Origin: Patescibacteria group bacterium
GTDB lineage: Bacteria > Patescibacteriota > Patescibacteriia > Magasanikbacterales > UBA922
Reading direction: 5' to 3'
Length of the DNA: 64,000 nucleotides
NCBI GenBank assembly: GCA_041651535.1
Contig: JBAZIZ010000005.1
Location: 26,188 to 90,187, forward strand
Shown here piece by piece: positions 5,476-63,885 of this stretch (its first letter is position 1; every line of letters starts with the position of its first letter). The notes under the pieces were generated by a model. The model did not search any database. It was not told where the DNA came from and saw nothing but the letters and a program-made list of their open reading frames with translations. Both the position numbers and the translations under genes were made by a program.

Positions 5476-7233
5476 TTAATTTTTTAGTATTAAATTTTCG
5501 TTTACTTTTTTTATTTCTTTTTCTATAAAAGTATCAACAGCTGCCAAAGAATTATTTTTTAAAATAAGTAAATTTTTGGTTTCTTCTATATTTTTTGGAG
5601 TAAAAGCAACTTCAAAATAAACACCAACTTTTTCATGAGGATTTAAAGCTGTTGTTTCCCAATGAATATTATTATTTTTTTCATTAAAAATTATATTGTT
5701 TCCTTTGCTCACACTAGTTTTGCCAGTAAAAGAAATGTTAGCTGATAAATTTGTATCTAAAATTAAATTTTTTATACGACTACTGCCATTTTCAATTTCA
5801 AGAAAAACCCAATATTTGCTTTCTTTGTTAATTTCTGGTGGATTTGGTCCACGTCCGATTTGGTCTCCTTCGTTTGTGTAATATTTTAAACTTTGGTCAA
5901 AAATAATATTTGTGCCTATTTTAACTTCAGAAGTTTGACTATCAATTTCAAAAATATCCAAACTATTTTCAACTTCAGATTTAATTACCGGAGTTAAAAC
6001 TAATTTTATGTCAGTTCCTTGTGGATAAGTTAAAATTGGTAAGATAATTTCAATATTTTTTTCTTCGTTTTGAACCAATTTATTTATAATATTAATTTTT
6101 AAATTTTTATTGTTATAAGTAGCAATAGAATTTAAGTCTTTTATTTTATTACTATCAATTAAGGTTGTATCAATCGGAATATTTATTTCTAGGTTTTTTA
6201 AATCAGTGTCACCAGAATTTTTTAAATTTAAGTTTAATTTTAAATTTTCAGCTGGAGAAACTGAATTGATATTGTTTTGCCAATTGCTAGTTAAAATTAA
6301 GTCTGGATGTAAAATCACAAAATTATGAGAGATAGTATTTTGTTTTATTACTGTTTGATTAATTTCTAAACTAGGTGTGATAGAATAATTTATTTGCTTT
6401 GACTCAAAAGAATTTTTTAATTTTAAAATTACGGAAAATAATTGTTCTGTTTGTGGTTTAAGTTCGGAAATTTTTATAGTTGGCTCACCATAAATTACTG
6501 AAAAATTTTCATTTTCTAAATTGATTTCTATGTTATTTAAAATTAATTCACCATCATTTTTTATTTTCAATTTGATCGGAGTACTACCGTAGTCTAGGAT
6601 ATTATTATTAGCAATAATTTCAGTTTGTAATACTGAACCACGTGGTATAGTGATAAGTGGAATATATTTTTCTTCAATTCTAGATTTGTCTTCTTGTTTA
6701 TAAACCAATTTAGCATGAATAAAGTGGTGTTCGTCAGGAGTGCCGTAAAACCAACCAGAAATCATCACTGAACCACATTCACCAGCTTTGATATCTAACA
6801 AAGAGAATTCATTAGTTTTTTTATCAAAATTTTCTGGCAAAGTTTTATCAAGCATAAAACCTTGAGGTAATTCAATTTTTAAAATTGAATCTTCCATTTT
6901 TACCGTACTTTCATTTTTATAACTAATTTTGTAAGTGATATAATCACCACTTTTAATTTTTGTATTTGGTTGTTCAATATTTATGTAAACTAAATCAGTA
7001 ATTGTTGGGTCATAAGTCCACCAAAAAATTGTGGTAAATCCAATAAAAAAAATACTAATTAAAAGACATAAATCAAAAATAAAAAGTTTTTTGGCATGAA
7101 CATAATTTAGATGATAAACTTTTTTATAATGTTTTTCTGCTAAATGAATAGGGTAGATAATTGTAGCCAAAAACCATTTTAGAGGTGAATGACGTAAATG
7201 ATGCAGAGTAAAATAAGTTTCAAAAAATTTCAT
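5476..7233 (-). CDS. Hypothetical membrane-anchored protein with a large beta-rich extracytoplasmic region
   Basis: 585-aa ORF. N-terminal TM helix (FIFDLCLLISIFFIGFTTIFWW), then a long Asn/Ile/Lys-rich region. No recognised catalytic motif. Confidence 0.5.
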   Translation of the reverse strand: MKFFETYFTLHHLRHSPLKWFLATIIYPIHLAEKHYKKVYHLNYVHAKKLFIFDLCLLISIFFIGFTTIFWWTYDPTITDLVYINIEQPNTKIKSGDYITYKISYKNESTVKMEDSILKIELPQGFMLDKTLPENFDKKTNEFSLLDIKAGECGSVMISGWFYGTPDEHHFIHAKLVYKQEDKSRIEEKYIPLITIPRGSVLQTEIIANNNILDYGSTPIKLKIKNDGELILNNIEINLENENFSVIYGEPTIKISELKPQTEQLFSVILKLKNSFESKQINYSITPSLEINQTVIKQNTISHNFVILHPDLILTSNWQNNINSVSPAENLKLNLNLKNSGDTDLKNLEINIPIDTTLIDSNKIKDLNSIATYNNKNLKINIINKLVQNEEKNIEIILPILTYPQGTDIKLVLTPVIKSEVENSLDIFEIDSQTSEVKIGTNIIFDQSLKYYTNEGDQIGRGPNPPEINKESKYWVFLEIENGSSRIKNLILDTNLSANISFTGKTSVSKGNNIIFNEKNNNIHWETTALNPHEKVGVYFEVAFTPKNIEETKNLLILKNNSLAAVDTFIEKEIKKVNENLILKN

Positions 7234-7315: not shown

Positions 7316-7344
7316 TTGACAAAGATAAAAAAATTTATTATTAT
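7316..7344 (+). promoter_or_regulatory. Sigma-70-like promoter (TTGACA-17-TATTAT) with AGGAGG RBS for the gene at 7386
   Basis: ttgaca at 7316-7321, a 17-nt spacer, tattat at 7339-7344. aggagg at 7375-7380 lies 5 nt before the ATG at 7386. Confidence 0.5.
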
Positions 7345-7385
7345 GTTTGGCAAATTGCCCTTTTTATTTTTTTTAGGAGGAAAAA

Positions 7386-7823
7386 ATGTACAAGTTGAAA
7401 AGTGTTTTTTATGTTTTAGGTTGGATTGCTGGAATCGCAGCTGTGATTTCGGCGGGCATGACAGCTTATTTGGCTGTTGAGAGTCCAAGTATACCTTTTT
7501 ATAGGTATGCTGTGGATCCAATTGCAGGTTCGTTGGTTTTTATGTTTTTTGTTTGGAGGATAAAGAAATCTTGGAGAAAGATTCTTCTCCTTAAAATAAA
7601 GGACTTGTCGGTCGTGATTTTTTTGCCGATAATGTCTCTTGGATTTCTTTACGGGATTATAACTCATAAAGGAATTCTTGTGAGTTTACAGACTGGGCTT
7701 ATTTGGATCTGTTGGCTTGTATTTGTTTTTTTTGTGTTGTTTGTTGCACTTTTGATTGTTTTGGCGGCAATAACAACCAAAGAATATAACAAGCAGAGGA
7801 GGAAATCCTACTCGGCGGATTAA
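7386..7823 (+). CDS. Hypothetical multi-pass membrane protein
   Basis: 145 aa with four hydrophobic helices. It has a strong promoter and RBS upstream. Confidence 0.55.
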   Translation: MYKLKSVFYVLGWIAGIAAVISAGMTAYLAVESPSIPFYRYAVDPIAGSLVFMFFVWRIKKSWRKILLLKIKDLSVVIFLPIMSLGFLYGIITHKGILVSLQTGLIWICWLVFVFFVLFVALLIVLAAITTKEYNKQRRKSYSAD

Positions 7824-7856
7824 AAAATAAGAGAGCCACTTTATTACCGGAACCCT

Positions 7857-9017
7857 GTGTTCCGGTTGTTTTTTTATACAGAAAATGTTAAGATAAACAA
7901 AAATATGAATAAAAATATTTTTTCATTTTTAATATTTATTTTTTTAATTTGTTTAATATTTTTAAGCGGATTTTTTGTCCGTAAATATTTTTTTCTTACA
8001 AAAAATGATTTGGTAAAAAATGATAAATTAATTCCTTTAAATATAAATAAAGCTGATTTTTTAAATAAAAAAAATGATAAGGTTTTTGCCTATCCTCAGA
8101 AAAAATTTTCTTTGTTTATTGCTGGTGATATTATGCTTGATCGGAGTGTGCAAGAAAAAATTACTAGTAGCGGAAAAGGGGATTATTCTTTTCCTTTTGC
8201 CTTTATCAATGAAGATTTAAAAACATACAATATTAAACTCGCAAATTTGGAAGGTCCTATTACTGATTTCAAATCCATTGCTGAACCAAATAAACCAATT
8301 TTTACCTTTTCAACGCAGTTTTTACCGATATTATCAGAAAATTTTGATTTGTTTAATTTGGCAAATAATCATACTTATAATTTTGGTTTTAATGGTCTTT
8401 TGCAGACTCGTGATTATTTATCTAAAAATAATCTAAATTATTTTGGAGACCCAAATAATGAACAGCAAAATCTTTCTTTTGTGATAAAACAAAATGATTT
8501 GAAAATTGGGGTTATTTCTTATAATGATTTAATTGATTTTGATTTTAATATTGTTTTGGATGAAATTGAAAAAATAAAATCAGATCAAGTTAATTTTATA
8601 ATTGTTTTTCCGCATTGGGGGACAGAATATGTTTATCGTCCAAATAGTAAACAAATTGAAGAAGCTCATTTACTGATTGATGCTGGGGCTGATTTGATTG
8701 TCGGTGGTCATCCACATGTGATTCAATCAATTGAAAAATACAAAGAAAAATTTATTTTTTATAGTTTAGGAAATTTTGTTTTTGATCAATATTTTGCTGA
8801 TGACACTATGACAGGTTTGACTTTAGTTTTAAATTTTTGGCAGGAAAAAAATGAAATAAAAAATGAGATTGAAATTAAACCAATAAAAATAAATAAAGAT
8901 TGTCAGGTGTTTTTTGCTGATCAAATTCAAAATGAAGAGACTTTAAAATTTTTGATAGACAATTCAGATATTGATATTATTTTACAAAATCAAATTTTGT
9001 CAGGAATTTTAAAATAA
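7857..9017 (+). CDS. CapA/PgsA-like metallophosphatase (poly-gamma-glutamate synthesis family)
   Basis: N-terminal signal or TM segment, GDIMLDRSV, ANNHTYNFG and GGHPHVIQ motifs of the CapA family. The true start is probably the internal ATG giving MNKNIFSFLIFIF. Confidence 0.6.
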   Translation: MFRLFFYTENVKINKNMNKNIFSFLIFIFLICLIFLSGFFVRKYFFLTKNDLVKNDKLIPLNINKADFLNKKNDKVFAYPQKKFSLFIAGDIMLDRSVQEKITSSGKGDYSFPFAFINEDLKTYNIKLANLEGPITDFKSIAEPNKPIFTFSTQFLPILSENFDLFNLANNHTYNFGFNGLLQTRDYLSKNNLNYFGDPNNEQQNLSFVIKQNDLKIGVISYNDLIDFDFNIVLDEIEKIKSDQVNFIIVFPHWGTEYVYRPNSKQIEEAHLLIDAGADLIVGGHPHVIQSIEKYKEKFIFYSLGNFVFDQYFADDTMTGLTLVLNFWQEKNEIKNEIEIKPIKINKDCQVFFADQIQNEETLKFLIDNSDIDIILQNQILSGILK

Positions 9018-9045: not shown

Positions 9046-9390
9046 TTTATTTTTTTCTTTATTACCCAGACTTTTTTTGCTAGGGGAATATAATGTATTT
9101 TTTATTTTCCATTTATCTACATATTGACCTATACCAAATTGGTCAGATTTATTTTTTACAGTTGTCTTTTTTTGTGACCATTTAACTAAACTTTCAAAGT
9201 TTATTTTGTATCTATCAGCAACTACAACATAAGTTAAATCTTGATTTTTTATAGCACGACGAATAGTCTGTGGATTTACACCAAATAATCTAGCAGCTTC
9301 AGATATTGAAACTCGTATTATTTCTTTTTTTTCTTCACTTTTATTATCAATATTTTTTTGATTGTCGGTTTGGTTTATGTTTAGTTCCAT
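9043..9390 (-). CDS. Small HTH DNA-binding protein (HTH_17/excisionase-like fold)
   Basis: ISEAARLFGVNPQTIRRAIKNQDL is a helix-turn-helix segment. Acidic N-terminus, basic C-terminus. Confidence 0.5.
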   Translation of the reverse strand: MELNINQTDNQKNIDNKSEEKKEIIRVSISEAARLFGVNPQTIRRAIKNQDLTYVVVADRYKINFESLVKWSQKKTTVKNKSDQFGIGQYVDKWKIKNTLYSPSKKSLGNKEKNK

Positions 9391-9842
9391 AAAACTTTTT
9401 ACACAAGAAACATACCATAAAAATATCTGTTTGTCAAGATAAAAATATTTTTTTGTCTACAATACTCTATACAAAAATCATAAAAAAGGTTTAATTTATC
9501 TTTAAAATAATGGTTTTTGTATACAATAGTCTATACAAATTATAATTTAAGATTTATGATTTTAGAATTTTTATTATTAAAAAATTAGTTTTTTAGAATA
9601 TTAATTTAAAATTTAGACTAATAATTATTATATATAAAATTATTAAGAAAAACTATTCTGAAATCTTAATTCTTAATTCTAAAATTGTTTGTGGATAAGT
9701 TTTTGAAAAAAAAGAAATAATGTGTTATTATTTTTTGTAATAAAAGGGGCAAATCTAAAGCAATTTAGATTCACAAATAAAGGCTATACAGTAGAGTGTG
9801 CATTAAAAGTGTAACACTTTTTTAATTTATACGTCTTCTATT

Positions 9843-16033: not shown

Positions 16034-16262
16034 AAACAGACAGACTAAAAAACAATTGCACTCTCACTTTGTCATCCCGACTAAGTCGGGATCCCTTAAA
16101 TAGTGAATTACCGCTATTGGAGACGAAGGATCCCTTAGACAATGAATTATCACTAAACACTTTTAATTCAATAATAAGTGGATTAAAAAGTCTAAGGGAT
16201 TCTTCACCTCCGACGTCACGTCGGAGGACTCAGAATGACAAAAAAGTAAGTTTTGACTATTT
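16034..16262. repeat. MITE-like inverted-repeat element (TTTGTCAT...ATCCCTTA // TAAGGGAT...ATGACAAA family), locus 1a
   Basis: Left arm ctttgtcat-cccgactaagtcggg-atcccttaaatagtgaattaccgcta (16066-16116). Inverted partner ctaagggattcttcacctccgacgtcacgtcggaggactcagaatgacaaaaaag (16190-16248). Internal palindromic hairpins. Confidence 0.6.
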
Positions 16263-16337
16263 TAATTTGTTAATTTTTTAGTGTTTAATTTTTGTTTTAA
16301 ATTTATTTTTAAAATAAAAAAACATCCTGATAAGTTT

Positions 16338-16512
16338 AAACAGACTAAAAAACAATCACACTCTCACTTTGTCATCCCGACTAAGTCGGGATCCCTTAAA
16401 TAGTGAATTACCGCTAATCATTTTAAAAATATTCAAACCTACACTTTGTCATGTTGAACCGAACGAAGTGAGAGTGAAGCATCCCTTAGACAATGAACTA
16501 TCGCTAATTATT
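16338..16512. repeat. Direct repeat copies of the same element family, locus 1b
   Basis: A 79-nt near-identical copy of 16034-16116 at 16338-16416. A second direct variant ctttgtcat-gttgaaccgaacgaagtgagagtgaagc-atcccttagacaatgaactatcgcta at 16443-16506. Confidence 0.6.
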
Positions 16513-16627
16513 TTTTAAACACTCAACAAAACATTTTCTTAAACAAACATTCAAAAAATATATTTATTGACTTTAATCATTTTTTTAGCTATAATTATCT
16601 AAATTTAGAAATAAAAAAAATTTTAGT

Positions 16628-19787: not shown

Positions 19788-20717
19788 ATGGATTTGTTTG
19801 CCAAATATAAATCAAGAATTTTTTTGGCTCCAATGGTTGATCTGACTGACAGCCCTTTTTGTTTTATTTGCAGAAAAGTTGCTGGTAAAAATTTTGTAAT
19901 TTTTCGTGAAATGCTTAGTGCTGAAGCTATTGCACGTCGCAATGAAAAAACATTAAAAAAATGTGGATATCAAAAAATTGAAAGACCAATAATTCATCAA
20001 ATTTTTGGTTCTAATCCAAAAACTTTAGTCACAGCTGCAAAAATTATTGTTAATGAATTTGGAACTGACGGTATAGATATCAATATGGGTTGTCCAGTAC
20101 CAAAAATAACAAAAAAAAATAAAGCCGGTGCTTCTTTGATGAAAGATCCAAAATTAGCTGGAGAACTTATAAAAAAATTAAAAGAAGCAAATTTAGGAGT
20201 TCCAATAAGTGTTAAAACTAGACTTGGTTGGTCAGATAAAAATGAAATATTAAATTTTGGAAAAGAATTACAAAAAGCAGGAGTTGATTTTTTGTCAGTG
20301 CATGGACGAACAAAATCGCAAGCATATAGTGGAAAAGCTGATTGGGAAATGATTAAAAAAATAAAAGAAGAATTAGTAATTCCAATAATTGCCAATGGCG
20401 ATATAAAAAATAAAGAAGATATAAAAAAATGTTTTGATATTACAAAAGCAGACGGAGTGATGATCGGTAGAGGAGCACTTGGTAATCCGTGGATTTTTTC
20501 TGATAAAGATAAAACTTTAAAAGAAATAAAAAAGATTGTTTTATTACATGCTAAGAAACATCAAAAATTTTATGGTAAAGAAAATGGTTTGAAAACTTTT
20601 CGTAAACATTTACTTTTTTATTTTAAAGGAATAAACAATATAAAAGAAATAAAATTAGAATTAGTAAAAGTCGAAAATATTAAACAATTAAAAAAAGTTT
20701 TAAAGAAAATAAATTAA
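19788..20717 (+). CDS. dus: tRNA-dihydrouridine synthase
   Basis: LAPMVDLTDSPFCFICRK, GIDINMGCPVPKI and the TIM-barrel Dus family pattern. 309 aa. Confidence 0.85.
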   Translation: MDLFAKYKSRIFLAPMVDLTDSPFCFICRKVAGKNFVIFREMLSAEAIARRNEKTLKKCGYQKIERPIIHQIFGSNPKTLVTAAKIIVNEFGTDGIDINMGCPVPKITKKNKAGASLMKDPKLAGELIKKLKEANLGVPISVKTRLGWSDKNEILNFGKELQKAGVDFLSVHGRTKSQAYSGKADWEMIKKIKEELVIPIIANGDIKNKEDIKKCFDITKADGVMIGRGALGNPWIFSDKDKTLKEIKKIVLLHAKKHQKFYGKENGLKTFRKHLLFYFKGINNIKEIKLELVKVENIKQLKKVLKKIN

Positions 20718-20856
20718 TTTTAGAATTATGATCTATGATCTATGATTTTAGATTTTTTAAATATATTTTTGTTTTTTTATTTAAAATCAAAGTTAATAAA
20801 ATAATTGACAAAATAGTTATTTTATGTTACATTAGATCATTAGTTCTTTACAAAAA

Positions 20857-20958
20857 TCTCCAAAAAATTTATATACAAAACTTTCATTTAGATAAATAAA
20901 ATTATTTGTTTAAATGAAGGTTTTGTGGATTTAATTATTTTTTTTGTTGGAGATTAAA
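20857..20958 (+). promoter_or_regulatory. Conserved cis-regulatory leader, copy A (second copy at 32922-33026)
   Basis: About 100 nt, nearly identical to the region upstream of 33027. Internal inverted repeat aaactttcatttaga-N18-tttaaatgaaggttt. The 5' ctccaaaaaa is complementary to tttttgttggag just before the ATG, so it could sequester the GGAG RBS. Confidence 0.45.
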
Positions 20959-21123
20959 ATGAAAGAAATTAAAAAACATCTTTCCAAATTTGTATTGAGT
21001 TATTTATGGGCCACAGTAAGTGTGTGCCCTTTGACTTTGATGGTAGTGTATTCGGAACTTTTGTCAGTTACGAATTTAATCGGGTTCTTGTATTTTATTT
21101 TTTTATTTTTTTTGTTCCATTAA
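20959..21123 (+). CDS. Small hydrophobic peptide ORF downstream of leader copy A
   Basis: The ATG is 8 nt after GGAG in the same arrangement as the gene at 33027. 54 aa, MKEIKKHLSKFVLSYLWATVSVCPL.... It is below the ORF-track length cut-off. Confidence 0.3.
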   Translation: MKEIKKHLSKFVLSYLWATVSVCPLTLMVVYSELLSVTNLIGFLYFIFLFFLFH

Positions 21124-21419
21124 TAATGGATTTGAAATTACGGGAAGATGATCTCGCTATGAAGTATTTAAAGTCATCATACTTTTGGTACTTATTCGGG
21201 ATGTGTCCAACTTTTTATTTGGGAAATTGGCTCGTAATTTCCATTAATAGAAGGATAACAGAAGAAATTTTCTTTTCTTCTTTCCTATTCGTATTATTTT
21301 TTTTGGTCAGTAAAGTTCCTTTTTATTTAAAAATTTTTGAAATAAAGCAGGGGGAGTTTACTATCGTAAAATACGATAGCATGGGTAATCCGATGATTAC
21401 CCAAAGGACTAAACTTTGA
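21006..21419 (+). CDS. Hypothetical ORF; doubtful; overlaps the small ORF in another frame
   Basis: 137-aa ORF. Its 3' part contains hairpins (tatcgtaaaatacgata, gggtaatccgatgattaccc), suggesting an RNA structure rather than coding sequence. Confidence 0.2.
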   Translation: MGHSKCVPFDFDGSVFGTFVSYEFNRVLVFYFFIFFVPLIMDLKLREDDLAMKYLKSSYFWYLFGMCPTFYLGNWLVISINRRITEEIFFSSFLFVLFFLVSKVPFYLKIFEIKQGEFTIVKYDSMGNPMITQRTKL

Positions 21420-21424
21420 TATGT

Positions 21425-21455
21425 TATCTTTTTTTGAGCCGGCTCACGTCGGCTC
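21425..21455. terminator. Intrinsic terminator
   Basis: gagccggctcacgtcggctc hairpin followed by a T-run. Confidence 0.45.
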
Positions 21456-21664
21456 TTTTTTATTTAAAAATTTTTTAAAAACAAAAAACTCCCTTATAAG
21501 GAGTTTAATTTTTTATAAACAGAATTCTAAAATCTAGCTATGTCTGTCGACAGGCAGGAATCAAAAATCTTAAATAAAAAAATAACCTTGTTCAGGTTAT
21601 TTTTTACTTTTTCCTTTTAAAATTAGACTTTTAACTAATAAAAAAAACTCCTTAGGCGTTTTTT

Positions 21665-25365: not shown

Positions 25366-25390
25366 AGTAAACCTGCCTGCCGGCAGGCAG
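25366..25390. terminator. GC-rich perfect palindrome after tkt
   Basis: cctgcctgccggcaggcagg is a 10-bp-arm perfect palindrome directly after the stop codon. Confidence 0.45.
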
Positions 25391-25472
25391 GAAGTCAAAA
25401 GATTTCGTTAAATAAGACAGTCTGAGATATGGCTGTTTTTATTTAAGATTTATGATTTTAGATTTAAGAGTT

Positions 25473-26020
25473 AAAACAAATTTTAAACAATGAATAAACA
25501 CTGGGAAATTTAACAAATTAAAATAAACAAAACTTACTCTTTTGTCATTTCGTAGCGAAGCGGAGAAATCCCTTAGACTTCTTAAAACATTATATTTTGT
25601 TTTAAAGAAAAATTAGTGGCAACTCACTGTTTAAGGGATGTTTCACCCTCACTTCGTTCGGTTCAACATGACAAAAGTGGTTGTGAATTTGTTTTTTAGC
25701 TAGGATATTTGTTTATGATTGGTTTATTTTATAAAACAAATTTTAAACAATGAATAAACACTGGGAAATTTAACAAATTAAAATAAACAAAACTTACCCT
25801 TTTGTCATTTCGTAGCGAAGCGGAGAAATCCCTTAGACTTCTTAAAACATTATATTTTGTTTTAAAGAAAAATTAGTGGCAACTCACTGTTTAAGGGATG
25901 TTTCACCCTCACTTCGTTCGGTTCAACATGACAAAAGTGGTTGTGAATTTGTTTTTTAGCTAGGATATTTGTTTATGATTGGTTTATTTTATAAAACAAA
26001 TTTTAAACAATGAATAAACA
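25473..26020. repeat. Tandem 260-bp repeat (2 full units plus a 28-bp partial), each unit carrying a MITE-like element
   Basis: Units 25473-25732 and 25733-25992 are near-identical. Each contains ttttgtcat-ttcgtagcgaagcggagaa-atcccttagac ... gtttaagggat-gtttcaccctcacttcgttcggttcaac-atgacaaaag (25540-25677 and 25800-25937). Confidence 0.8.
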
Positions 26021-26121
26021 CAAAAAGAATAGTAAATTAAAGTAGATAAAATTTATTTTTTCCTTTTTAATTTTTATTTTTGAATTTGTAAAGTTATCCA
26101 CTTTTTTTATTTTTGAATTAT

Positions 26122-26150
26122 TTGACACTTTTTTCTGTTCATGTTATATT
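26122..26150 (+). promoter_or_regulatory. Sigma-70-like promoter of the hrcA operon (TTGACA-17-TATATT)
   Basis: ttgaca at 26122-26127, a 17-nt spacer, tatatt at 26145-26150. It overlaps the CIRCE-like operator. Confidence 0.5.
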
Positions 26151-26175
26151 ATCACTCGTAAGTATAGAGTGATAA
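26149..26175 (+). promoter_or_regulatory. CIRCE-like HrcA operator (TTATCACTC-N9-GAGTGATAA)
   Basis: Perfect 9-bp inverted repeat with a 9-nt spacer, one position off the canonical TTAGCACTC-N9-GAGTGCTAA. It sits immediately upstream of hrcA. Confidence 0.65.
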
Positions 26176-27830: not shown

Positions 27831-28040
27831 AAAGCAAAAAGGAAAAAGTCAAAAATTTTCAATAAGAATGGATAAAATATAAAATTTGTTTATCTAAAAA
27901 AACAAAGTTTATATAAAAAACTTTCTTTAAAAAATGACTTTAGACTTTTGACTTTTGACTTATAACATTTAAATCAAAATAAACACAGCAAATTACAAAA
28001 ATTTACTAAAAAAATTTAATCATTAATTAATATAAAAATT

Positions 28041-31968: not shown

Positions 31969-32126
31969 TTTTGTCATACCGTAGCCCCGACGTATCGTCG
32001 GGGCGAAGGTATCCCTTAAATAGCGAATTATTACTATTTTTTCTTTAAAACAAAATATAATGTTTTTAAGATGTCTAAGGGATTTCTCCATCCCGACTTA
32101 TCGTCGGGATTACGAAATGACAAAAG
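31969..32126. repeat. MITE-like inverted-repeat element, locus 3
   Basis: ttttgtcat-accgtagccccgacgtatcgtcggggcgaaggt-atcccttaaatagcgaatta...tctaagggat-ttctccatcccgacttatcgtcgggattacgaa-atgacaaaag. Same termini and architecture as 25540-25677. Confidence 0.7.
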
Positions 32127-32240
32127 TTTATGTTAATTGTTTTTTAAGTTTATATAAATTCATCAGTCTGTTCTTATTTCCTAAAATAGTTTTTAAAAAG
32201 ATTTTGAATTTTTAATTTGTTTTTGTTATAATAAAAATGT

Positions 32241-32750: not shown

Positions 32751-32921
32751 TTTAGGATTTTAGATTTAAGAATTTAGAATAAAATAGTCTGGGATAGGGC
32801 TGTTTTTTTGTTAAAATTTAGCTAAAATAAGGGAAAAAGGTGATTAAAAGCTTGACAAAGTGATAAAAATGTGATATTATGGTTTGTTATTTAAAATAAT
32901 AACAAAAGTTCTTTAAAAAAA

Positions 32922-33026
32922 ACTCCAAAAAAGTTTATACACAAAACTTTCGTTTAGATAAATAAAATTATTTGTTTAAATGAAGGTTTTGAGTTTACTT
33001 TATTATTTTTTAGTTTGGAGATTAAA
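32922..33026 (+). promoter_or_regulatory. Conserved cis-regulatory leader, copy B
   Basis: actccaaaaaagtttatacacaaaactttcgtttagataaataaaattatttgtttaaatgaaggttttg...tttggagattaaaatg, nearly identical to 20857-20958. Confidence 0.45.
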
Positions 33027-33413
33027 ATGAAATTATTGACAACAGAAGAAATTAAGAAAGAATTCATGTCCTTTAAAGGGACAAAACTCAGAATTTTCTG
33101 GGGACAAGAGCACGGTCATTTACCTTGTTCACAGATATCTGAAGAAGGTTCTGTCAAGTTTTATATACTTGGCAAAGGAAAGGTAATGATTGAATGCCGT
33201 GTTGGCGATGAAATTACCTGGACAAAACCCCATAATCTTTCGGAAGAAGAAATGGAAATGCTCGAGGAGCGTTTTCATGAAGATTATCCAGAAGGTTGGG
33301 AAAAGTCAGCTGATGATTGGACTAAAATTGCCAATGAGTGCCACGAGCAATTGCTTTATGGCAAATGGCTTGACGATGGTCTGGAAAACTGGTATGCCAA
33401 TCATCCGGTATAA
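33027..33413 (+). CDS. Hypothetical cytoplasmic protein (acidic, Trp-rich C-terminus)
   Basis: The ATG follows GGAG by 8 nt; the ORF-track TTG start at 33015 is less likely. 128 aa. Slightly higher GC than neighbours. Confidence 0.5.
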   Translation: MKLLTTEEIKKEFMSFKGTKLRIFWGQEHGHLPCSQISEEGSVKFYILGKGKVMIECRVGDEITWTKPHNLSEEEMEMLEERFHEDYPEGWEKSADDWTKIANECHEQLLYGKWLDDGLENWYANHPV

Positions 33414-33565
33414 TATAAAAAAAAGTCCCGTCACTTTCTAGTGATAATGGTTTTTTCTCTGCTGAACATTCTGTTCGGCGGGAAAAACCAACTTTTTTAC
33501 AGGTCGGCAGCAATGTCGACCTTTTATTTTACAAAAAAACTCGCCTTATAGTGAGTTTGTTTTTT

Positions 33566-33643
33566 TTAAAGTTCCTCCTCCTAATAGGAGGAGGTCAGGA
33601 GGAGGTTATTTAAAAAAAATTTTTTAAAAAATAACCCCACCCT
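33566..33643. repeat. GGAGG/CCTCC-rich palindromic element, copy 1
   Basis: aaagttcctcctcctaataggaggaggtcaggaggaggttatttaaaaaaaattttttaaaaaataaccccaccct, with two nested hairpins. It lies between convergent genes. Confidence 0.6.
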
Positions 33644-33697
33644 AACCCCTGCCTATCGGCAGACAGGCTCCCCTAATAGGGGAGGGAAATCTTAAAT

Positions 33698-34099
33698 CTA
33701 AATTCTGGAATCTAAAATCTTATTTACTTCAGCATCTGCCTCTTTATTTCCTTCACGATAAGTGTGTTTTATATTTACTTTTTTAAATTTTTGCATCAAA
33801 TTATAAGCTTCGATAAAAAGTTTTTGTAGAGTCGGTTCTTTTACTTTCCAGCGTCTATTTAATTGTTCACAAACAAGTTTACTATCCACAAAAATTTCTA
33901 GTTCATCAGCTTTTAATTCTAAAGCTTTTTTAAGACTGGAAATAAGAGCAGAATATTCAGCAAAATTATTTGTCTGTTTTCCTAAATATTCTCCGTAATT
34001 AGCTAAAGTTTTTCCTGTTTCATTTTTAATTACGATTCCGGTTGCGGCTGGACCAGGATTTCCTCTGGCACCACCGTCGGTAAAGATTATTAATTTCAT
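33698..34099 (-). CDS. rnhA: Ribonuclease HI
   Basis: IFTDGGARGNPGPAATGIVI...FAEYSALI...HTYREGNKEAD with the DEDD catalytic pattern. 133 aa. Confidence 0.85.
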   Translation of the reverse strand: MKLIIFTDGGARGNPGPAATGIVIKNETGKTLANYGEYLGKQTNNFAEYSALISSLKKALELKADELEIFVDSKLVCEQLNRRWKVKEPTLQKLFIEAYNLMQKFKKVNIKHTYREGNKEADAEVNKILDSRI

Positions 34100-34157
34100 A
34101 TAAGTATAGTTGATAATTAAATTTTTTTAAAATATTTTTTATAATTTGTTTGTTTAT

Positions 34158-35930
34158 TTAGATATTCGACTTCTTAAGATCAATTATTGTATGTTGAATT
34201 TCTTTATTACCGTTCCAAACATTTTTATCAATTTCAAAAACAATATCAATTTTATCACCAACTTTTATATTTCCACACCAATTTGTTTTGTCATTTTTTT
34301 CATTACATAAATTCCAGCCAATAAATTTTTTTATTTTGCCATCTTTTCTTAGCATCATTTTTAAATGTTTACTGTCTTTGCCGACTCCCTGAAAACTAAA
34401 AATTTCTAGATTTTTTGCTAAAAATTTTGGTTTTTCATTATCTTTGCCAAAAGGTTTAAATTTTTCTAATAAAGTAAATAAATGAGCATCAATTTCATTG
34501 ATGTCAATTTCCATATCAATATTTAAAACCGGAGACATATCAAGTCCAACTGTTTTTTCTTGATATTTTTTTAGCATTTTTTGTTCAAAATCAACTAGAT
34601 TATCTTTTGTTTTTAAACTAAAACCACAAGCCATTGGGTGTCCACCAAATTTAGTAAATAATTCATTCATTTCTTGTAAAGATTCAATAATATTAAATCC
34701 ATCAATACTTCTACCTGAACCAGTTATTTCGCCATCATTTTCTGCCATGACAATAGTCGGTTTATAATATTTTTCTTTGATTTTACTAGCAATTAAACCA
34801 ACTATCCCTGTTGACCATTTTTGTCCAAGAAAAAAAATTATATCTTTGTTTTTTTGTTTTTTTTCTATATCTTTGATAACTTGATTAACTAATTCGTCAG
34901 TCAATTTTTGTCTTTCTAAATTATTTTGGTCAAGTTCAAAAGCCAAATCAACAGCTTCCGTAGCTTTTTTGGTAACAAGTAAATTATAAGCAACATTAGC
35001 ATGATTCATCCGACCAGCCGCATTTAAGCGTGGTGCAATCTGGAAACTAATCATTTCTGATGTTATCTCTTGTTTTTTTGTTCCATCTTCTTCTGCTAAT
35101 CGTGATTCTAATAAAAGTTTTTGTAGTCCAACTCTTTTTGTTCTATTTAAAATTATCATGCCAAATTGAGTCAGAGTTCGAGATTCGTTTAAAAGTGGAA
35201 CCATGTCAGCAATTGTACCGATAGCTACTAAATCCAAAAGCCATTTTTCAAAATATTCATGACTGTTCCCGTCATTAAGTTTATTATTTTTTTGTTCTTT
35301 GTGTGTTTTGAGAAGTCCTTGGGCAAGTTTAAAAGCAGTGGCGCAACCAGCAATATCTTTGCTTTTAAATTTTTTTTCCAGTTTGGCATGAATTATTGCA
35401 TAGGCATTAGGAATTTTTTCTGGAATTTCATGATGGTCAGTAATAATAACATTAATATTTTTTTCATTTGCTAATTCAATTTCTGTAAAATTACTAATTC
35501 CGCAATCGCAAGTAATAATTAAGTTTGTTTTTTCATTAGAAAGATTTTCAATAGTTTTTAAATTTAATCCATAACCTTCAGTTTCACGATGGGGGATATA
35601 AATATCCAAATTTTCAGCACCAATATTTTTTAAAGTCAAAAAAAGTATAGCTGAGGAAGTAACACCGTCAGCATCATAATCTCCATGAATTATTATTTTT
35701 TCTTTTTTTTCTATAGCTGTAAAAATTCTTTTACAAGCTTTTTTCATGTCTGAAAAAATAAAAGGATCTTGAACATGTTTTTCGTAATCTGGATTTAAAA
35801 ATTCCCCAATTGTTTCTTTGGTAAAAATTTTTCTATGAAAAAGTAGATTAGCCACAATAATGGGCAAATCTTTGTTTTCTTCTAAAAAAGTTTTAGGAGC
35901 TTCGGGCAAGACTTTCCAGATTTTTTGCAT
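34158..35930 (-). CDS. recJ: Single-stranded-DNA-specific exonuclease RecJ
   Basis: DHH motifs IIIHGDYDADGVTSSAIL, ITCDCGIS, ITDHHE, and the DHHA1 region. 590 aa. Confidence 0.85.
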   Translation of the reverse strand: MQKIWKVLPEAPKTFLEENKDLPIIVANLLFHRKIFTKETIGEFLNPDYEKHVQDPFIFSDMKKACKRIFTAIEKKEKIIIHGDYDADGVTSSAILFLTLKNIGAENLDIYIPHRETEGYGLNLKTIENLSNEKTNLIITCDCGISNFTEIELANEKNINVIITDHHEIPEKIPNAYAIIHAKLEKKFKSKDIAGCATAFKLAQGLLKTHKEQKNNKLNDGNSHEYFEKWLLDLVAIGTIADMVPLLNESRTLTQFGMIILNRTKRVGLQKLLLESRLAEEDGTKKQEITSEMISFQIAPRLNAAGRMNHANVAYNLLVTKKATEAVDLAFELDQNNLERQKLTDELVNQVIKDIEKKQKNKDIIFFLGQKWSTGIVGLIASKIKEKYYKPTIVMAENDGEITGSGRSIDGFNIIESLQEMNELFTKFGGHPMACGFSLKTKDNLVDFEQKMLKKYQEKTVGLDMSPVLNIDMEIDINEIDAHLFTLLEKFKPFGKDNEKPKFLAKNLEIFSFQGVGKDSKHLKMMLRKDGKIKKFIGWNLCNEKNDKTNWCGNIKVGDKIDIVFEIDKNVWNGNKEIQHTIIDLKKSNI

Positions 35931-36068
35931 AACAATTCATTTTGACTTTTAATAAAATAAAGGCAAAATGGTAAAAAATAACATAGCAAAAACCCCAATG
36001 AAAGTAATGATTGTCCAAAGGATTTTCATTTTTTTTGATCCGTACATATAAAATAATAAAATTATTGT

Positions 36069-37850
36069 TTATCTTTTTAAAACTGCTAAATAAGCTTCGG
36101 AAGGAATATCTACTTTTCCTTTGCCTAAAGAAAGCATTTTCTTTTTTCCTTTCTTTTGTTTTTCTAACAATTTTCTTTTTCTAGTAACATCTCCACCATA
36201 TAATTTAGCAGTAACATCTTTTCGAAGAGCTGATAATCTTTCGGCAGCAATTACTTTTCCTCCGATTGCTGCTTGAATTTTTATCATAAATTGTTGTTTT
36301 GGCAAAGTTTCTTTTAAAGAATTAACAATTTTTTTCCCGATACGAAAAGCTTCATCACGCCACACTAGAGTAGCTAGAGCTTCTACTGCTTCTTCAGCAA
36401 TTAAAATATCCATTTTTACGACATCTGATTTACGATATTCTTTATATTCATAATTAAGTGAAGCATAACCACTAGTAACTGTTTTTAATTTGTCATAAAA
36501 ATCAGTGATAAGAGAAGCTAATGGCATTTCATAATGAAGCATCGCACGTTGTCCAGCTCCGGTACTTAAATATTCAGTATTTTTGTATAATCCTTTTCGT
36601 TCAGCCACTAATCCCATTACATTACCAATAAAAATTTCTGGAGTAATAATATCCACATTCATCCATGGTTCCTCAATCATTTCAATATATTGAGTTTCTG
36701 GTAAACTTTGTGGACTTTTGACAATAATTTTTTCTCGATTTGTTTTATAAACATGATAAGCTACACTAGGAACAGTTGCGATAATATGTAAACCAAATTC
36801 TCTGACTAATCTTTCTTGAAAAATTTCTAAATGAAGCATTCCTAAAAAACCACAACGAAAACCAAAACCTAAAGCTTGGGATTGCTCTGGTTCGTAAAAT
36901 AAAGCAGAATCATTTAATTTTAACTTATCCATGGCATCACGAAGTGCATTGTAATCATCACCTTCTTGAGGAAAAATTCCAGCAAAAACCATTGGCTTAA
37001 CTTCTCGATAACCTGATAAAGGAGTGTCGCTAGGATTTTCTTTATGAGTTATTGTATCACCAACTTTGACATCACCAAGTTCTTTTAATCCTGTAACTAC
37101 ATAACCAACTTGTCCATTTTCTAGTTTTGGATCAGAAATCATTTCTGGAGAATAATGTCCTAAATCTAAAATTTCTGCTTCGGTTTTTGTACCCATGAAA
37201 TAAATTTTGTCACCTTTTTTTAATTCACCATCAAAAACTCTAACCGAAGCAACTACACCACGGTAATCATCATAAAAAGAATCAAAAATCATTGCTCGAG
37301 TTTTAGCATCTTTATTTATTTTTGGTTCAGGTACAAGTTCTATAACTTTGTCTAAAATTTTATCAATGTTTTCTCCAGTTTTTGCTGAACAACTAAGAAT
37401 TTCTTCTTTTTTACAACCAAGCAAATTGATAATTTCTTCGCTTACTTTTTCAATTTCGGCATTTGGTAAATCAATTTTGTTTAAAACTGGAATAATTGTT
37501 AAGTCTTGTTCTAAAGCTAAATATAAATTACCAATTGTTTGAGCTTGGACACCTTGTGTTGCGTCAACCAAAAGTATAGCGCCTTCTACTGCAGCGAGTG
37601 AGCGAGACACTTCGTAAGTAAAATCAACATGTCCCGGAGTATCAATTAAATTTAAAATACAGTCTTTATATTTCATTCTGACTGGTTGTAATTTTATAGT
37701 GATACCACGTTCTTGTTCAATATCCATTTGGTCTAAAAGTTGAGAACGCATTTTTCTTTTTTCAACAGTATTTGTAATTTCAAGAAATCTATCAGCCAAA
37801 GTTGATTTTCCGTGATCAATGTGAGCGATGATACAAAAATTTCTAATCAT
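36069..37850 (-). CDS. lepA: Translation elongation factor 4 (LepA)
   Basis: IRNFCIIAHIDHGKSTLADR, DTPGHVDF, and the LepA C-terminal domain. 593 aa. Confidence 0.95.
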   Translation of the reverse strand: MIRNFCIIAHIDHGKSTLADRFLEITNTVEKRKMRSQLLDQMDIEQERGITIKLQPVRMKYKDCILNLIDTPGHVDFTYEVSRSLAAVEGAILLVDATQGVQAQTIGNLYLALEQDLTIIPVLNKIDLPNAEIEKVSEEIINLLGCKKEEILSCSAKTGENIDKILDKVIELVPEPKINKDAKTRAMIFDSFYDDYRGVVASVRVFDGELKKGDKIYFMGTKTEAEILDLGHYSPEMISDPKLENGQVGYVVTGLKELGDVKVGDTITHKENPSDTPLSGYREVKPMVFAGIFPQEGDDYNALRDAMDKLKLNDSALFYEPEQSQALGFGFRCGFLGMLHLEIFQERLVREFGLHIIATVPSVAYHVYKTNREKIIVKSPQSLPETQYIEMIEEPWMNVDIITPEIFIGNVMGLVAERKGLYKNTEYLSTGAGQRAMLHYEMPLASLITDFYDKLKTVTSGYASLNYEYKEYRKSDVVKMDILIAEEAVEALATLVWRDEAFRIGKKIVNSLKETLPKQQFMIKIQAAIGGKVIAAERLSALRKDVTAKLYGGDVTRKRKLLEKQKKGKKKMLSLGKGKVDIPSEAYLAVLKR

Positions 37851-37998
37851 ATTTTTTTAATTTTATTTGTCTATAATATCAAAAAAAAATGTTTTTAGCA
37901 AGAAAATGAAAAGCGAGTAAATGAGTAGGGTTAGTAAACGGGTAAGAAATTTTAGAATTTAAAAAACCTCGCATATACTCAGCGGGGTTTTTGTTTTC

Positions 37999-38065
37999 TT
38001 TAAAGTTCCTCCTCCTAGTAGGAGGAGGACAGGAGGAGGTTATTATTTAAAATAACCCCACCCTT
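37999..38065. repeat. GGAGG/CCTCC-rich palindromic element, copy 2
   Basis: tttaaagttcctcctcctagtaggaggaggacaggaggaggttattatttaaaataaccccaccct, near-identical to 33566-33643. Confidence 0.6.
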
Positions 38066-39742: not shown

Positions 39743-40024
39743 AATATATTTGAGTTTATTATAGCACAGTTGTCTTATTATTTCAAAATAGTTTTTAGTA
39801 AGAATTTATTTTACATTTCAAGATAGTTTATTTTATATTGAGTCTAAAGTCTAAAGCCAAAAAATAATTTTAGATTTCTGATTTTAGATTTAAGATTTAA
39901 CAATTAATTCATAAATCAAAAATCTAAAATCGAGAATAACCAGACTTTTGACTTATTGTAATATCTGCTATAATAAAATAATTAGATTAAGTATTTATTT
40001 TAATAAAATAATTAATTATATTTT

Positions 40025-49965: not shown

Positions 49966-50004
49966 AAACTGATCCCGATAGTACTAATATAATAATTAAA
50001 AACT

Positions 50005-50451
50005 ATGGACTATCAAAAAATCTGGGATAAAACCCTAAGTAAAGGAGAAGAAGTTAAATATAGCTTCTCTATTGGCGATCGGTATATAAAATTTAATCTC
50101 ATAGCCTGGGGCGTTGTAAGCGTATTTTTATTACCAGCTATGGGATTTGGTGTTTTAACTTTTCTCATAGCACTCTTTTATTATAAATTCTATTTAAGAG
50201 TAGCTAATGCTTATGCTTTCACCAACAAAAGAGTGCTGATTCATACAGGCTGGCTTTCTACCCATTCAACTAGTATTGATTATTCTAAAATTACTGATGT
50301 GCATGTTAGAGAGCCATTCTTTGATAAGGTGGTGACTAAGACTGGCGACATTGCTATAAACACAGCTGGTTCTGGCGCTATCGAAGTAATTTTAAGGCAC
50401 ATTGAGAAACCATATGAGATTAAGAAGCAATTAGATGAAATGAAAGATTAA
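50005..50451 (+). CDS. Bacterial PH-domain (bPH_2, YdbS/YdbT-like) membrane protein
   Basis: Two N-terminal TM helices followed by ...FTNKRVLIHTGWLSTHSTSIDYSKITDVHVREPFFDKVV..., typical of bPH_2. Confidence 0.6.
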   Translation: MDYQKIWDKTLSKGEEVKYSFSIGDRYIKFNLIAWGVVSVFLLPAMGFGVLTFLIALFYYKFYLRVANAYAFTNKRVLIHTGWLSTHSTSIDYSKITDVHVREPFFDKVVTKTGDIAINTAGSGAIEVILRHIEKPYEIKKQLDEMKD

Positions 50452-50560
50452 TTTAAAATATTTGTATATACAAAAAGAGCGGGTTGTTTCCGTTCTTTTT
50501 GTTTACAAATCAATGAAAATCTGGTAAAGTTATAGATGTAAAGTTTTATATATTCGTATT

Positions 50561-50776
50561 ATGAACAATAAAAAAAATCAATCAAAAATTGGTGAAAATA
50601 TAAGGAGACTTCGTCTATATAATAAAATGTCACAAGATGGTTTGTCGAAAAAAGCTGATTTGGCTTTTTATACCATTTCAAAAATAGAAGCAGGGTCTAC
50701 CCCTAATCCCACAATCGAAACAGTAAAGAAAATCGCAGACGCTCTCAGTGTTTCGCTTGATGAACTTTTAAAATAA
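50561..50776 (+). CDS. XRE-family HTH protein; likely controller (C) protein of the downstream RM gene
   Basis: IGENIRRLRLYNKMSQDGLSKKADLAFYTISKIEAGSTPNPTIETVKKIADALSVSLDEL. 71 aa. It ends 5 nt before the RM gene. Confidence 0.7.
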   Translation: MNNKKNQSKIGENIRRLRLYNKMSQDGLSKKADLAFYTISKIEAGSTPNPTIETVKKIADALSVSLDELLK

Positions 50777-50781
50777 TCTAT

Positions 50782-53463: not shown

Positions 53464-54350
53464 TGAACATTTTATCTCTTATTGCTAGTGAGTTGAATGG
53501 TAGAGAAATGGCTGTTTTGGTTTGGCTTTTGCTTTTTATTTGTTATGGCGTTTTTCAAAAAAATTTTCGTAGTTCATTTTTAGCTGTTTTAAAATCGTTT
53601 TTTCAAATTAAAATAATTGCCGTTTTCGTAGCAATGTTGTTTTATGTTTCCTTAATTCTGTGGGGCTTATATATTATTAAAATCTGGGATTTATATTTAG
53701 TAAAAGATACTATATTTTGGCTATTTGGTTCAGCCTTTATTCTTCTTTTAAATAGCAATAAAGCTATTCAGAATGATAACCATTTCAAAAATGTTTTAAA
53801 AGACAACATTAGATTAGTGATCTTTCTTGAATTTATTCTCACATTTTACTCCTTTGGTTTTTTAGTTGAAATGATCTTTGTTCCAATAATGTTTATTATT
53901 GTGTCTATGGGTATTTTAGCAGATATTAAAACAGAATATTCACAAATTAAAAAAATTATTGGTTCATTCTTGTCTATAATTACTATACTCCTTATTGTAT
54001 TTTTTGTTTACAAAGTAATTGATGATTATCAAAGCTTCTTATCATTAAATAATTTACGTTCATTTTTCATCCCGTTAATTCTTTCCTTTCTGTTTATGCC
54101 ATTTTTATATTTGTTTGCTGTAGTTATGGCTTATGATGATTTTTTTAGTCGATTAAAATTATTTTTAAGGAGTGACCAGATAATATACCAATATACAAAA
54201 AAACAAGTTATTAGATTATGCTTTTTTAATTTAAGCAAGCTTAATAAATTTTCTAGAAAAAATTCATCGGAGTTACAAAAAATCAAAAATAAGAGTGATG
54301 TAGAAAATATGATTTATCAATTTAAGATCGAATATTCGGATAGAATATAA
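53463..54350 (+). CDS. Hypothetical multi-pass membrane protein translationally coupled to the RM gene
   Basis: ATG overlaps the RM stop by 1 nt. 295 aa with about 6 TM helices. Confidence 0.4.
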   Translation: MNILSLIASELNGREMAVLVWLLLFICYGVFQKNFRSSFLAVLKSFFQIKIIAVFVAMLFYVSLILWGLYIIKIWDLYLVKDTIFWLFGSAFILLLNSNKAIQNDNHFKNVLKDNIRLVIFLEFILTFYSFGFLVEMIFVPIMFIIVSMGILADIKTEYSQIKKIIGSFLSIITILLIVFFVYKVIDDYQSFLSLNNLRSFFIPLILSFLFMPFLYLFAVVMAYDDFFSRLKLFLRSDQIIYQYTKKQVIRLCFFNLSKLNKFSRKNSSELQKIKNKSDVENMIYQFKIEYSDRI

Positions 54351-54372
54351 GATATTGTATAGCATTTAATTT

Positions 54373-55710
54373 TTATTCTTCTAACAGTGTCAACCTCTTT
54401 TCTTTTAGTACAATCCTACTTCTTAAATTAGCCAGCAGTTCTCGTTTCTCAATAGCACTGCCTTCCTTGAGGACATATTTGGCGTAGTCTTTCATATCCA
54501 CATCTTGTCTTTTGGATTTAATCGGCTTCTCGCCGAAGACTATGCCTTGAAATTTATTAAACCTCTCAACTTCCAGCTCTAACTTATTAAGCATACCCAG
54601 TTCGTTAATACTGACCCTATCTATTATCCTCAGCAGTTCAGCAATCAATTCTTCTTCTCTTATGTATTTATTTTTGCAGAATCTGTCTTTGCCCCGTGAG
54701 CATCCATAATAAATATAATGAGCAGTTGTACCGTCTTTTAGTTGTTTGTATTTGCTTTCCGCTGATATACCTGATCCGCAGAGTCCGCAAGTTATTAATT
54801 TAGTGAAGGCAAACTCTTTGCTTTCTCTTTGAATATTATCTCTCTTTAACTGCGCCTTAGCTTTCTCGAATAGTTCTTGAGTAATAATTGGCTTATGCTT
54901 TCCTTGATACCAATTACCACTGCCAGTCGGTCGTTCAAAGACGCCGTAGTAGAAAGTGTTATCTAACACTCTGTATATTCCGCTTAGAGTTAGAGGCTTA
55001 TTACCTCTGGTATAGAAGTTTAATTCATGGGTTAGCCAGTGATATAATCTTCGTCCGCTGTATTTTTCATAAGCAACTTTTTCAAACATCTGTTTAATAA
55101 CAGGCGCTCGTTTAGGATCAATAATCACTTGGCATTTTTTGTCATTGCGGTTTTGGTTTAAGTATCCCAGAGGTGCTACTCCAACCCATAACCCCATTTC
55201 CGCTCTAGTCCTTAATCCTCGTCTAACATTAACGCCCCTGTTGTCGTTTTCTAACTTAGCTTGCGATCCTAGAATCATCAGTAAGAATTTTTCATTAGGG
55301 TTATTAGAAAACTTCTGGCCGTAGGTTCTAATTTCTTTTAACACCCCTTGATCCATTAAATCGACAATAGCGCCAAGGTCGCCAGCGTTTCTACTGATAC
55401 GATCAGGCGCCCAAGTAAGGATGGCATTGAATTTGCCTTGCCTGATGTCGCCGATCAGCTCATTAAAAACCTGGCGTTGACCAGTCTCTTTGGCGCTATG
55501 GGATTCACGCTTAATTTCGACCACATTCAAGTTTTCTTTGACCGCCAAATCCAACATCTCTTTGACTTGGCTGTCTATTGAAAGAACTTGCCGTTCTTCC
55601 GATTCCGTCGACTTTCTGGCATAGAGGCAGTATTTCGGCGGTTCCTCGGGCTTTTGATTTGTTGTTGGAGCTTGTAGCCCGCCCAGCCCCGGGTAATTTA
55701 CGTTTATCAT
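54373..55710 (-). CDS. Large serine recombinase (integrase)
   Basis: Resolvase catalytic domain with YARKSTESEE (nucleophilic Ser), recombinase domain, zinc-ribbon CGLCG...YYGC, coiled-coil C-terminus. 445 aa. Confidence 0.8.
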   Translation of the reverse strand: MINVNYPGLGGLQAPTTNQKPEEPPKYCLYARKSTESEERQVLSIDSQVKEMLDLAVKENLNVVEIKRESHSAKETGQRQVFNELIGDIRQGKFNAILTWAPDRISRNAGDLGAIVDLMDQGVLKEIRTYGQKFSNNPNEKFLLMILGSQAKLENDNRGVNVRRGLRTRAEMGLWVGVAPLGYLNQNRNDKKCQVIIDPKRAPVIKQMFEKVAYEKYSGRRLYHWLTHELNFYTRGNKPLTLSGIYRVLDNTFYYGVFERPTGSGNWYQGKHKPIITQELFEKAKAQLKRDNIQRESKEFAFTKLITCGLCGSGISAESKYKQLKDGTTAHYIYYGCSRGKDRFCKNKYIREEELIAELLRIIDRVSINELGMLNKLELEVERFNKFQGIVFGEKPIKSKRQDVDMKDYAKYVLKEGSAIEKRELLANLRSRIVLKEKRLTLLEE

Positions 55711-55795
55711 ATACTACAATGAATGACGCAAAGAACCCAGGGCGTCTAGACCACTAGCTGTTGGTAACTAAAGCCCTTAAAAGTCTTAAGATTCC

Positions 55796-57690: not shown

Positions 57691-57697
57691 ATAAGTC

Positions 57698-59610: not shown

Positions 59611-59654
59611 ATGCAATGTTAAAATAATAAGAATGTAGACAGTTAAGTTTTAAT

Positions 59655-60824: not shown

Positions 60825-60825
60825 T

Positions 60826-62034: not shown

Positions 62035-62042
62035 ATAAAAAT

Positions 62043-63878: not shown

Positions 63879-63885
63879 CTATTTA

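Follow-up and report, generated by a model that had tools for sequence, protein, structure and literature searches.

What could two almost identical leaders be doing in front of two genes that have nothing in common? The question arises from a 64 000-nucleotide stretch of DNA (the window; G+C content ~28%), in which an earlier note had picked out such leaders ahead of the genes that begin at 20959 and 33027. The repeat is borne out by alignment. Positions 20842-20964 and 32907-33032 are 88.9% identical over 126 nt (blastn), the two leaders, designated A and B, have a mean column identity of 94% (MAFFT) and the window contains a 46-nt core exactly two times, against none in 100 shuffles. The limits of the repeat had to be redrawn, since the conserved block begins at 20842 and not, as had been proposed, at 20857, and the CTCC of copy A begins at 20858. 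A looser similarity reaches into the promoter region, with 81% identity over 180 nt. When a covariance model built on both copies (R1) was run over the window and a further ~12 kb of the contig, it located these two and nothing more, which leaves two copies, in the same orientation, within ~76 kb of the source contig, a 93-kb metagenomic contig (ENA ERZ27247363, k141_1926505). An independent Logan assembly (SRR8542065_5186; L060) is 100% identical to positions 32962-36837 and the sequence is therefore not an artefact of one assembly. That contig ends at 32962, in the middle of hairpin B, as would be expected if the leader is a repeat with several copies at which de Bruijn assemblies break off.

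Each leader lies between signals that could define a transcription unit of its own (Table 1). The promoters of both cassettes are strong and of the sigma-70 type. In cassette A the predicted transcription start, at about 20839-20842, coincides with the first conserved base. In cassette B it is placed at ~32887, with a weaker promoter-like site ending at 32900, and the conserved block starts ~20 nt further downstream. The two promoter regions align loosely and require an 18-nt insertion in B, which carries the -10 element of that copy. The 3' ends of the cassettes are also alike, with a terminator followed in both by a AAAAACTC..CTTATA..GAGTTT hairpin. On this arrangement, each leader would represent the 5' untranslated part of an independent promoter-to-terminator cassette.

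Table 1. Coordinates of the predicted features of cassettes A and B and of the heptad arrays beside them.
Feature	Position	Strand	Details
Left heptad array, slot A	20716-20762	+	ATGATCT, GATTTTA units; inverted partner 21517-21536
Promoter A	20805-20833	+	TTGACA, 17-nt spacer, (TG)TACATT; 10/12 consensus matches, extended -10
Leader copy A, conserved 5' UTR block	20842-20958	+	Similarity to B extends through ATGAAA to 20964
Anti-SD arm A, CTCCAAAAAA	20858-20867	+	Pairs with 20942-20952
AU-rich hairpin A, 25 bp	20874-20927	+	Loop AAAU 20899-20902; G.U pairs, no mismatch on +
Outer-helix 3' arm A	20942-20961	+	GGAG 20949-20952, 6-nt spacer, ATG 20959
Cargo A	20959-21419	+	54-aa hydrophobic ORF 20959-21123 and 97-aa ORF 21126-21419; ORFans, GC3 0.36
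Two terminator-like hairpins closing cassette A	21436-21506	+	
Left heptad array, slot B	32753-32783	+	Inverted partner 33692-33722, 84% complementary
Promoter B	32852-32880	+	TTGACA, 17-nt spacer, (TG)TATTAT; 11/12 consensus matches, extended -10
Leader copy B, conserved block	32907-33026	+	Similarity extends through ATGAAA to 33032
Anti-SD arm B, CTCCAAAAAA	32923-32932	+	
Hairpin B, 23 bp	32942-32991	+	AAAU loop; G32952 for A20885 of copy A: A-U to G.U
Outer-helix 3' arm B, TTTGGAG	33014-33029	+	GGAG 33017-33020, spacer, ATG 33027
Cargo B	33027-33413	+	128-aa soluble acidic ORFan, GC3 0.36
Two terminator-like hairpins closing cassette B	33501-33558	+	Second resembles second hairpin of A

The genes downstream are indeed unrelated to each other. 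Neither the 97-residue protein of cassette A nor protein B has a homologue besides itself among 5.8 billion proteins, and a full phmmer search with protein B gave no homologue among 1.8 billion representatives. The sole hit in that search (P0123), to a subtilisin-like protein, was inflated by repeats and was discarded as an artefact. Comparison of the cargo proteins with Pfam, PHROGs and PADLOC gave nothing significant, marginal matches only, and exact-protein look-ups for strain variants of slot B returned only the identical sequence or contigs that break off within the leader or short of it. An AlphaFold model of protein B, with a pLDDT of 42, was unusable. The two cargos are without a common function that would explain co-regulation. 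In base composition, GC3 is 0.36-0.38 for both ORFs of A, for B and for a gene at 7386-7823, and 0.10-0.18 for the core genes; by this measure the cassette cargo is foreign.

Both leaders are predicted to adopt a common fold, in which an outer helix and a hairpin nested inside it constitute the minimum free energy (MFE) structure and also the centroid. The sequence CTCCAAAAAA is complementary to TTTTGTTGGAG in A and to TTTGGAG in B, both of which end 6 nt before the ATG, so that the proposed match between a 5' CTCC motif and the SD region holds in both copies. In the outer helix CUCCAAA(AAA) pairs with (UUUUG)UUGGAG in copy A and with UUUGGAG in copy B. An inverted repeat of 15 bp had been described for the leaders; the repeat is present, but its actual stems extend to 25 bp in A and 23 bp in B. 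Uninterrupted in Watson-Crick and G.U pairs, they exceed every other perfect stem on either strand of the window; the next longest measure 15-16 bp and the maximum in block shuffles is 12-18 bp. The z-scores of the folds are -6.9 (A) and -5.4 (B). According to the partition function, a thermodynamic prediction, the probability that GGAG is unpaired does not exceed 0.11 at 25, 37, 45 or 55 °C in either copy, and the AUG is about half open in the model. A conserved upstream ORF or leader peptide was also considered and rejected. The ATG in the 3' arm opens six codons in A and 16 in B, and because these ORFs differ in length and frame no leader peptide is conserved.

The reading that we prefer, tentatively and at somewhat less than an even chance, is that the leader is a cis-acting translation lock, a module that a few replaceable ORFan cassettes of one small family have in common and that controls their expression. 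The suggestion that a structure pairs the GGAG is supported in silico by the z-scores, the pairing of GGAG itself, the stability of the plus-strand hairpin and the pattern of substitutions. That the SD is paired says little in itself, since GGAG is paired in the MFE structure of 29-42% of shuffled leaders. The sequence CTCCAA arises by chance in 0.25-0.35% of composition-matched shuffles of the 5' part of the leader.

The most serious competitor is that the leaders are passive duplicates. The promoter-leader-terminator backbone would then have been recently copied or recombined, the hairpin would be at most a generic stabilizer of the 5' end of the mRNA and the CUCC:GGAG match would have no regulatory role. 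There are just two copies, at 94% identity, a weaker resemblance reaches upstream into the promoters, the cassettes are alike at their 3' ends and the genome has many other intergenic repeat families, all of which is in line with simple copying. Common descent alone does explain much of the leader similarity. The count of compensatory changes between the copies is zero, with a single one-sided change, because there are only two copies and they are 94% identical.

The leader also lacks conservation in the other collections and loci that we searched, as a passive duplicate might. Two exact patterns, one covering the 3' arm of the hairpin together with its loop and the other the 5' arm, each gave 0 matches in JGI metagenome contigs, from which it follows that the source contig itself is absent from that collection. 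Among viral contigs there were 0 matches to an anti-SD...SD pattern and to a two-arm pattern, and an 18-mer matched an IscA-like coding sequence only. The INPHARED phages gave no leader match with blastn or tblastn, and model R1 detected no copy, with E values of about 1 or more, in 36 distant transketolase-anchored loci and ten RNase Y-anchored loci of Magasanikbacteria.

Neutral decay of a duplicate would not, however, give the observed distribution of differences. The copies differ in 14 columns, just one of which is among the 78 columns of the anti-SD arm, the hairpin and the segment from the SD to ATGAAA; the other 13 are in the 5' tail and the two linkers, which together make up 48 columns (Fisher p = 1.1 x 10^-5). 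The sole change within the stem keeps the pairing, and chance seldom yields a perfect CUCCAA complement to the SD. Such uneven placement of substitutions is the pattern that constraint on the paired elements would give. We regard passive duplication as rather unlikely.

Alternatively, the unit could be a DNA element, whether palindromic and mobile or recombinogenic (of the MITE, Correia or ERIC type), a site for cassette recombination or an operator for a symmetric protein. The palindromic core would suit such an element, as would the other palindromic repeat families in the window, the inverted heptad arrays that flank both cassettes, the presence of a different gene in the dus-rny slot of a relative and the end of the independent assembly within hairpin B, such as is typically seen at repeats. 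The strands are not equivalent, however. All three or four imperfect positions of the stems are G.U on the plus strand (G.T as DNA) and A.C on the minus strand, and the hairpin is for this reason more stable on the plus strand (-25.4 kcal/mol in A and -23.4 kcal/mol in B) than on the minus strand (-13.6 and -7.4 kcal/mol, respectively). This two- to threefold asymmetry in energy, and the G.U pattern behind it, is unlike a DNA transposon end. Neither copy is bordered by a target-site duplication (flanks atcatt/.../gaaatt and aacaaa/.../ttattg) and the ends of the unit share an inverted repeat of only ~7 nt (AATCTCC/GGAGATT). The copies, only two in 76 kb, do not differ in orientation, nor in their register relative to promoter, SD and ATG. 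An operator for a dimeric regulator, which had been put forward for this site, is not supported. The symmetric half-sites of such an operator would overlap or adjoin the promoter; the palindrome, of at least 50 nt, begins ~33 nt past the predicted transcription start in A and ~55 nt past it in B, lies some 33-85 nt beyond the start overall and contains three or four mismatches as DNA. We judge a DNA element improbable. The G.U asymmetry, the A-U to G.U replacement and the placement of the substitutions instead favour a sense-strand RNA element, which would be under constraint.

The Correia/NEMIS sequences of Neisseria and the enterobacterial ERIC sequences are co-transcribed palindromic repeats, and PeSL are cassettes that combine a T4-type phage promoter with a stem-loop. 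The leader resembles all of these as a repeated intergenic unit of ~120 nt with a long hairpin, linked to ORFans in variable slots and predicted to be transcribed with its neighbours. It differs in its two copies, in their fixed orientation and SD/ATG register and in having no terminal inverted repeat or target-site duplication at the leader unit, and no phage match was found for the leader.

Among the earlier proposals was a sensor RNA, in which temperature (a thermometer) or a ligand (a riboswitch) would cause the SD to open, and we find it highly improbable. In the model the SD is occluded and copy B undergoes some rearrangement at 4-15 °C, as a sensor might. Nevertheless, between 25 and 55 °C the pairing of GGAG does not fall below 89% in either copy, copy A shows no predicted change at any temperature and the SD helix stays closed to 55 °C in the model, which argues against a thermometer. 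The helices of ROSE and fourU thermometers are short and marginally stable, with melting at ~30-42 °C. Both leaders share with them a cis helix over the SD, but differ in the persistence of that helix and in having no ROSE or fourU match. The proposal of a riboswitch fares no better, as the leader matches no Rfam family, consists of a plain hairpin in an outer helix with no multi-helix junction, binding pocket or conserved unpaired core, and has no copy beyond the source contig in the collections and loci searched. A search of the whole window with Rfam at the gathering score recovered four tRNAs only, and for both leaders at E <= 10 there was only generic long-hairpin (miRNA-precursor) noise, far below the gathering score.

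Barely plausible is a transcription attenuator, in which an A-tract, the hairpin and a U-rich tail would terminate transcription early unless an antiterminator acts; the hairpin is flanked by 5' CAAAA and 3' UUUUG and then a U-rich stretch, but the long U-run is 14-20 nt beyond the stem, no alternative antiterminator fold is predicted and a terminator scan passes over the leader hairpin yet flags the terminators of both cassettes, those flagged in the two regions being short G+C-rich stems directly before a T-run.

We return to the translation lock and how it might work. The leader RNA would first form the very stable, AU-rich hairpin of 23-25 bp. Once the ribosome-binding region has been transcribed, the upstream CUCCAAA(AAA) would pair with (UUU)UUUGGAG, so that GGAG is held in a helix clamped by the hairpin and the primary transcript would by default be closed to translation. 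Opening would have to be active since the helix is stable, most plausibly by cleavage of the long duplex by a double-strand-specific RNase of the RNase III type. After such a cut the anti-SD and SD arms would be on separate molecules, with only 7-9 intermolecular pairs between them. As an alternative, a trans-acting RNA or protein might capture the CUCC arm. From the sequence we infer the transcript, the role of GGAG as a ribosome-binding site, the repression of translation by the helix and the route of opening.

Perfect duplexes of such a length, 23-25 bp, are classic substrates of RNase III-type enzymes. Known leaders that depend on RNase III are the lambda N leader, the E. coli adhE 5' UTR and the 5' stabilizer of phage SP82. 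These leaders are marked by at least ~20 bp of uninterrupted double-stranded RNA, and the stems here, at 25 and 23 bp, have that and amount to at least two helical turns, with a 5' UTR structure that is predicted to occlude the ribosome-binding site as in the known cases. The present stem differs in being almost purely A-U and G.U, and cleavage is a prediction here. The 76 kb that we examined contain no RNase III (rnc) gene. In leaders of the rpoS type an upstream arm occludes the start region and the small RNAs DsrA, RprA and ArcZ open it via that arm. The present leaders likewise have a long hairpin and an upstream arm predicted to occlude the translation start region, but no candidate trans RNA was found in the sequence examined.

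A further comparison is with type I toxins. The tisB, zorO, dinQ and hok mRNAs have 5' UTRs that sequester the SD, and an inert primary transcript that is activated by processing. Similarly, the 5' segment of the leader is predicted to pair with the ribosome-binding site, and the first ORF of cassette A encodes a hydrophobic peptide that, at 54 residues, is below 60. The protein of cassette B is soluble and acidic and, at 128 residues, larger than that; no antisense or divergent antitoxin RNA was identified and there is no sequence relation to a known family. On the minus strand at the leaders there are only weak promoter-like sites (9/12 matches), which are as frequent as shuffles would predict and do not lie at corresponding places in the two copies. 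In its mechanism the proposed lock would belong to a known kind, but its sequence family is a new one, made up of two copies on one contig.

The lock presupposes that GGAG serves in initiation. SD sequences had been called rare in this genome, and a GGAG or AGGAGG precedes just three or four of 49 ORFs in the window (those starting at 7386, 20959 and 33027, and perhaps 57295). Three of these genes are also GC3 outliers. The pattern in the window is that the few genes bearing an SD are small accessory ORFans of foreign composition, each with a strong promoter of its own, and the core genes are without one. Part of the Parcubacteria is without the anti-SD of 16S rRNA (PMC9297842). Since SD sequences are nearly absent from the window and some Parcubacteria have no anti-SD, GGAG may not be a ribosome-binding site in this host. 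Elsewhere in the window, a 145-residue membrane protein (7386-7823, GC3 0.38) is encoded in a unit at 7317-7880 with its own TTGAC(A/T) promoter, a strong AGGAGG and a terminator, and the same set of signals accompanies a small ORFan gene at 1985-2449 of locus L052.

The closest named relatives by RNase Y are Candidatus Magasanikbacteria (Patescibacteria/CPR). In species-representative genomes the transketolase-anchored loci are at most 62% identical and there is therefore no close reference genome. A relative with 87% identity in RNase Y has a different small gene, of the 23S-rRNA-IVS protein family, in the dus-rny slot and no leader; at the nucleotide level it is homologous to the window up to 20725 and again from ~21565. 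In another, with 90% identity, a 132-residue ORFan with an AGGAGG site adjoins rny. These differences in slot content indicate that the leader is part of replaceable accessory cassettes and not of the conserved core.

The translation lock can be extended into a broader proposal, which we advance as a long shot. A CPR lineage with nearly SD-free translation would keep ORFan cassettes in heptad-bounded slots and express them through an SD-dependent, locked leader, a gate encoded by the host or by the element for foreign or toxic genes, which would be opened by processing of double-stranded RNA. If this is so, the leader would represent a new class of cis-regulatory RNA tied to the turnover of gene cassettes in Patescibacteria. 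Members of this group cannot be cultured on their own, and next to nothing is known of how they regulate their genes. The lock by itself, if real, would be among the first cis-regulatory RNA elements described for them and would bear on how SD-dependent and SD-independent initiation coexist where use of the SD has nearly vanished.

The intergenic regions of the window contain several other repeats. Arrays with a 7-nt period, of GATTTTA/GATTTAA/GAATTTA and GTCTAAA types, lie mostly just past stop codons and often form inverted pairs. In the window they occur at 9558-9690, 20716-20762, 21517-21536, 25441-25474, 27945-27965, 31866, 32753-32783, 33687-33722 and 39842-39962, and in a relative locus (L049) at 6150-6180, 6600-6640 and 9247-9380. 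The heptad motif is enriched, with 25 matches where seven are expected. Arrays bracket both leader cassettes, the array at 39842-39962 is a nested palindrome that is empty inside and in a relative GTCTAAT-type arrays bracket a different gene in the corresponding slot. The possibilities for these arrays include a 3'-end signal, an array for protein binding and cassette boundaries.

A second repeat family, with a unit of ~190-260 nt, comprises a tandem pair at 25472-26066 (94% identical) and diverged copies (72-81%) at 16040-16519 and 32011-32199, in the opposite orientation. Its core is an imperfect palindrome of ~135 nt that folds on both strands (z about -3.5), and it has no Rfam match and a MITE-like look. 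A repeat of ~85 nt is present at 33556-33643 and 37990-38064 (82% identical), in convergent or 3' intergenic regions in both cases; it consists of a CCTCCTCC-TAAT/TAGT-AGGAGGAGG hairpin followed by CAGGAGGAGG and a AACCCCACCC tail. A G+C-rich palindrome, CCTGCC(T)..(G)GCAGG or CTGTCGACAGG, is located downstream of genes and adjoins heptad arrays at 25373-25392, 21540-21560 and 33648-33670, and the relative has it too (L049, about 6190-6215).

Two further features of the window lie apart from the leaders. From about 50000 to 64000, and continuing in locus L046, a block of higher G+C content is found downstream of the tRNA-Ser genes at 46553 and 49545. It encodes a serine recombinase (54373-55710), ParB-like and N6 methyltransferases, an enzyme of the MmeI/Eco57I type, DruA, NurA and a DUF87 protein and is probably an integrated mobile or defence island. 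At 26100-26175 an inverted repeat, TATCACTCGTAAGTATAGAGTGATA, is situated at the start of hrcA, and it recurs upstream of hrcA in locus L052 as ATCACTCGAAAGCAAAGAGTGAT. This may be the lineage-specific counterpart of the CIRCE operator for the hrcA-grpE-hsp20-dnaK-dnaJ cluster.
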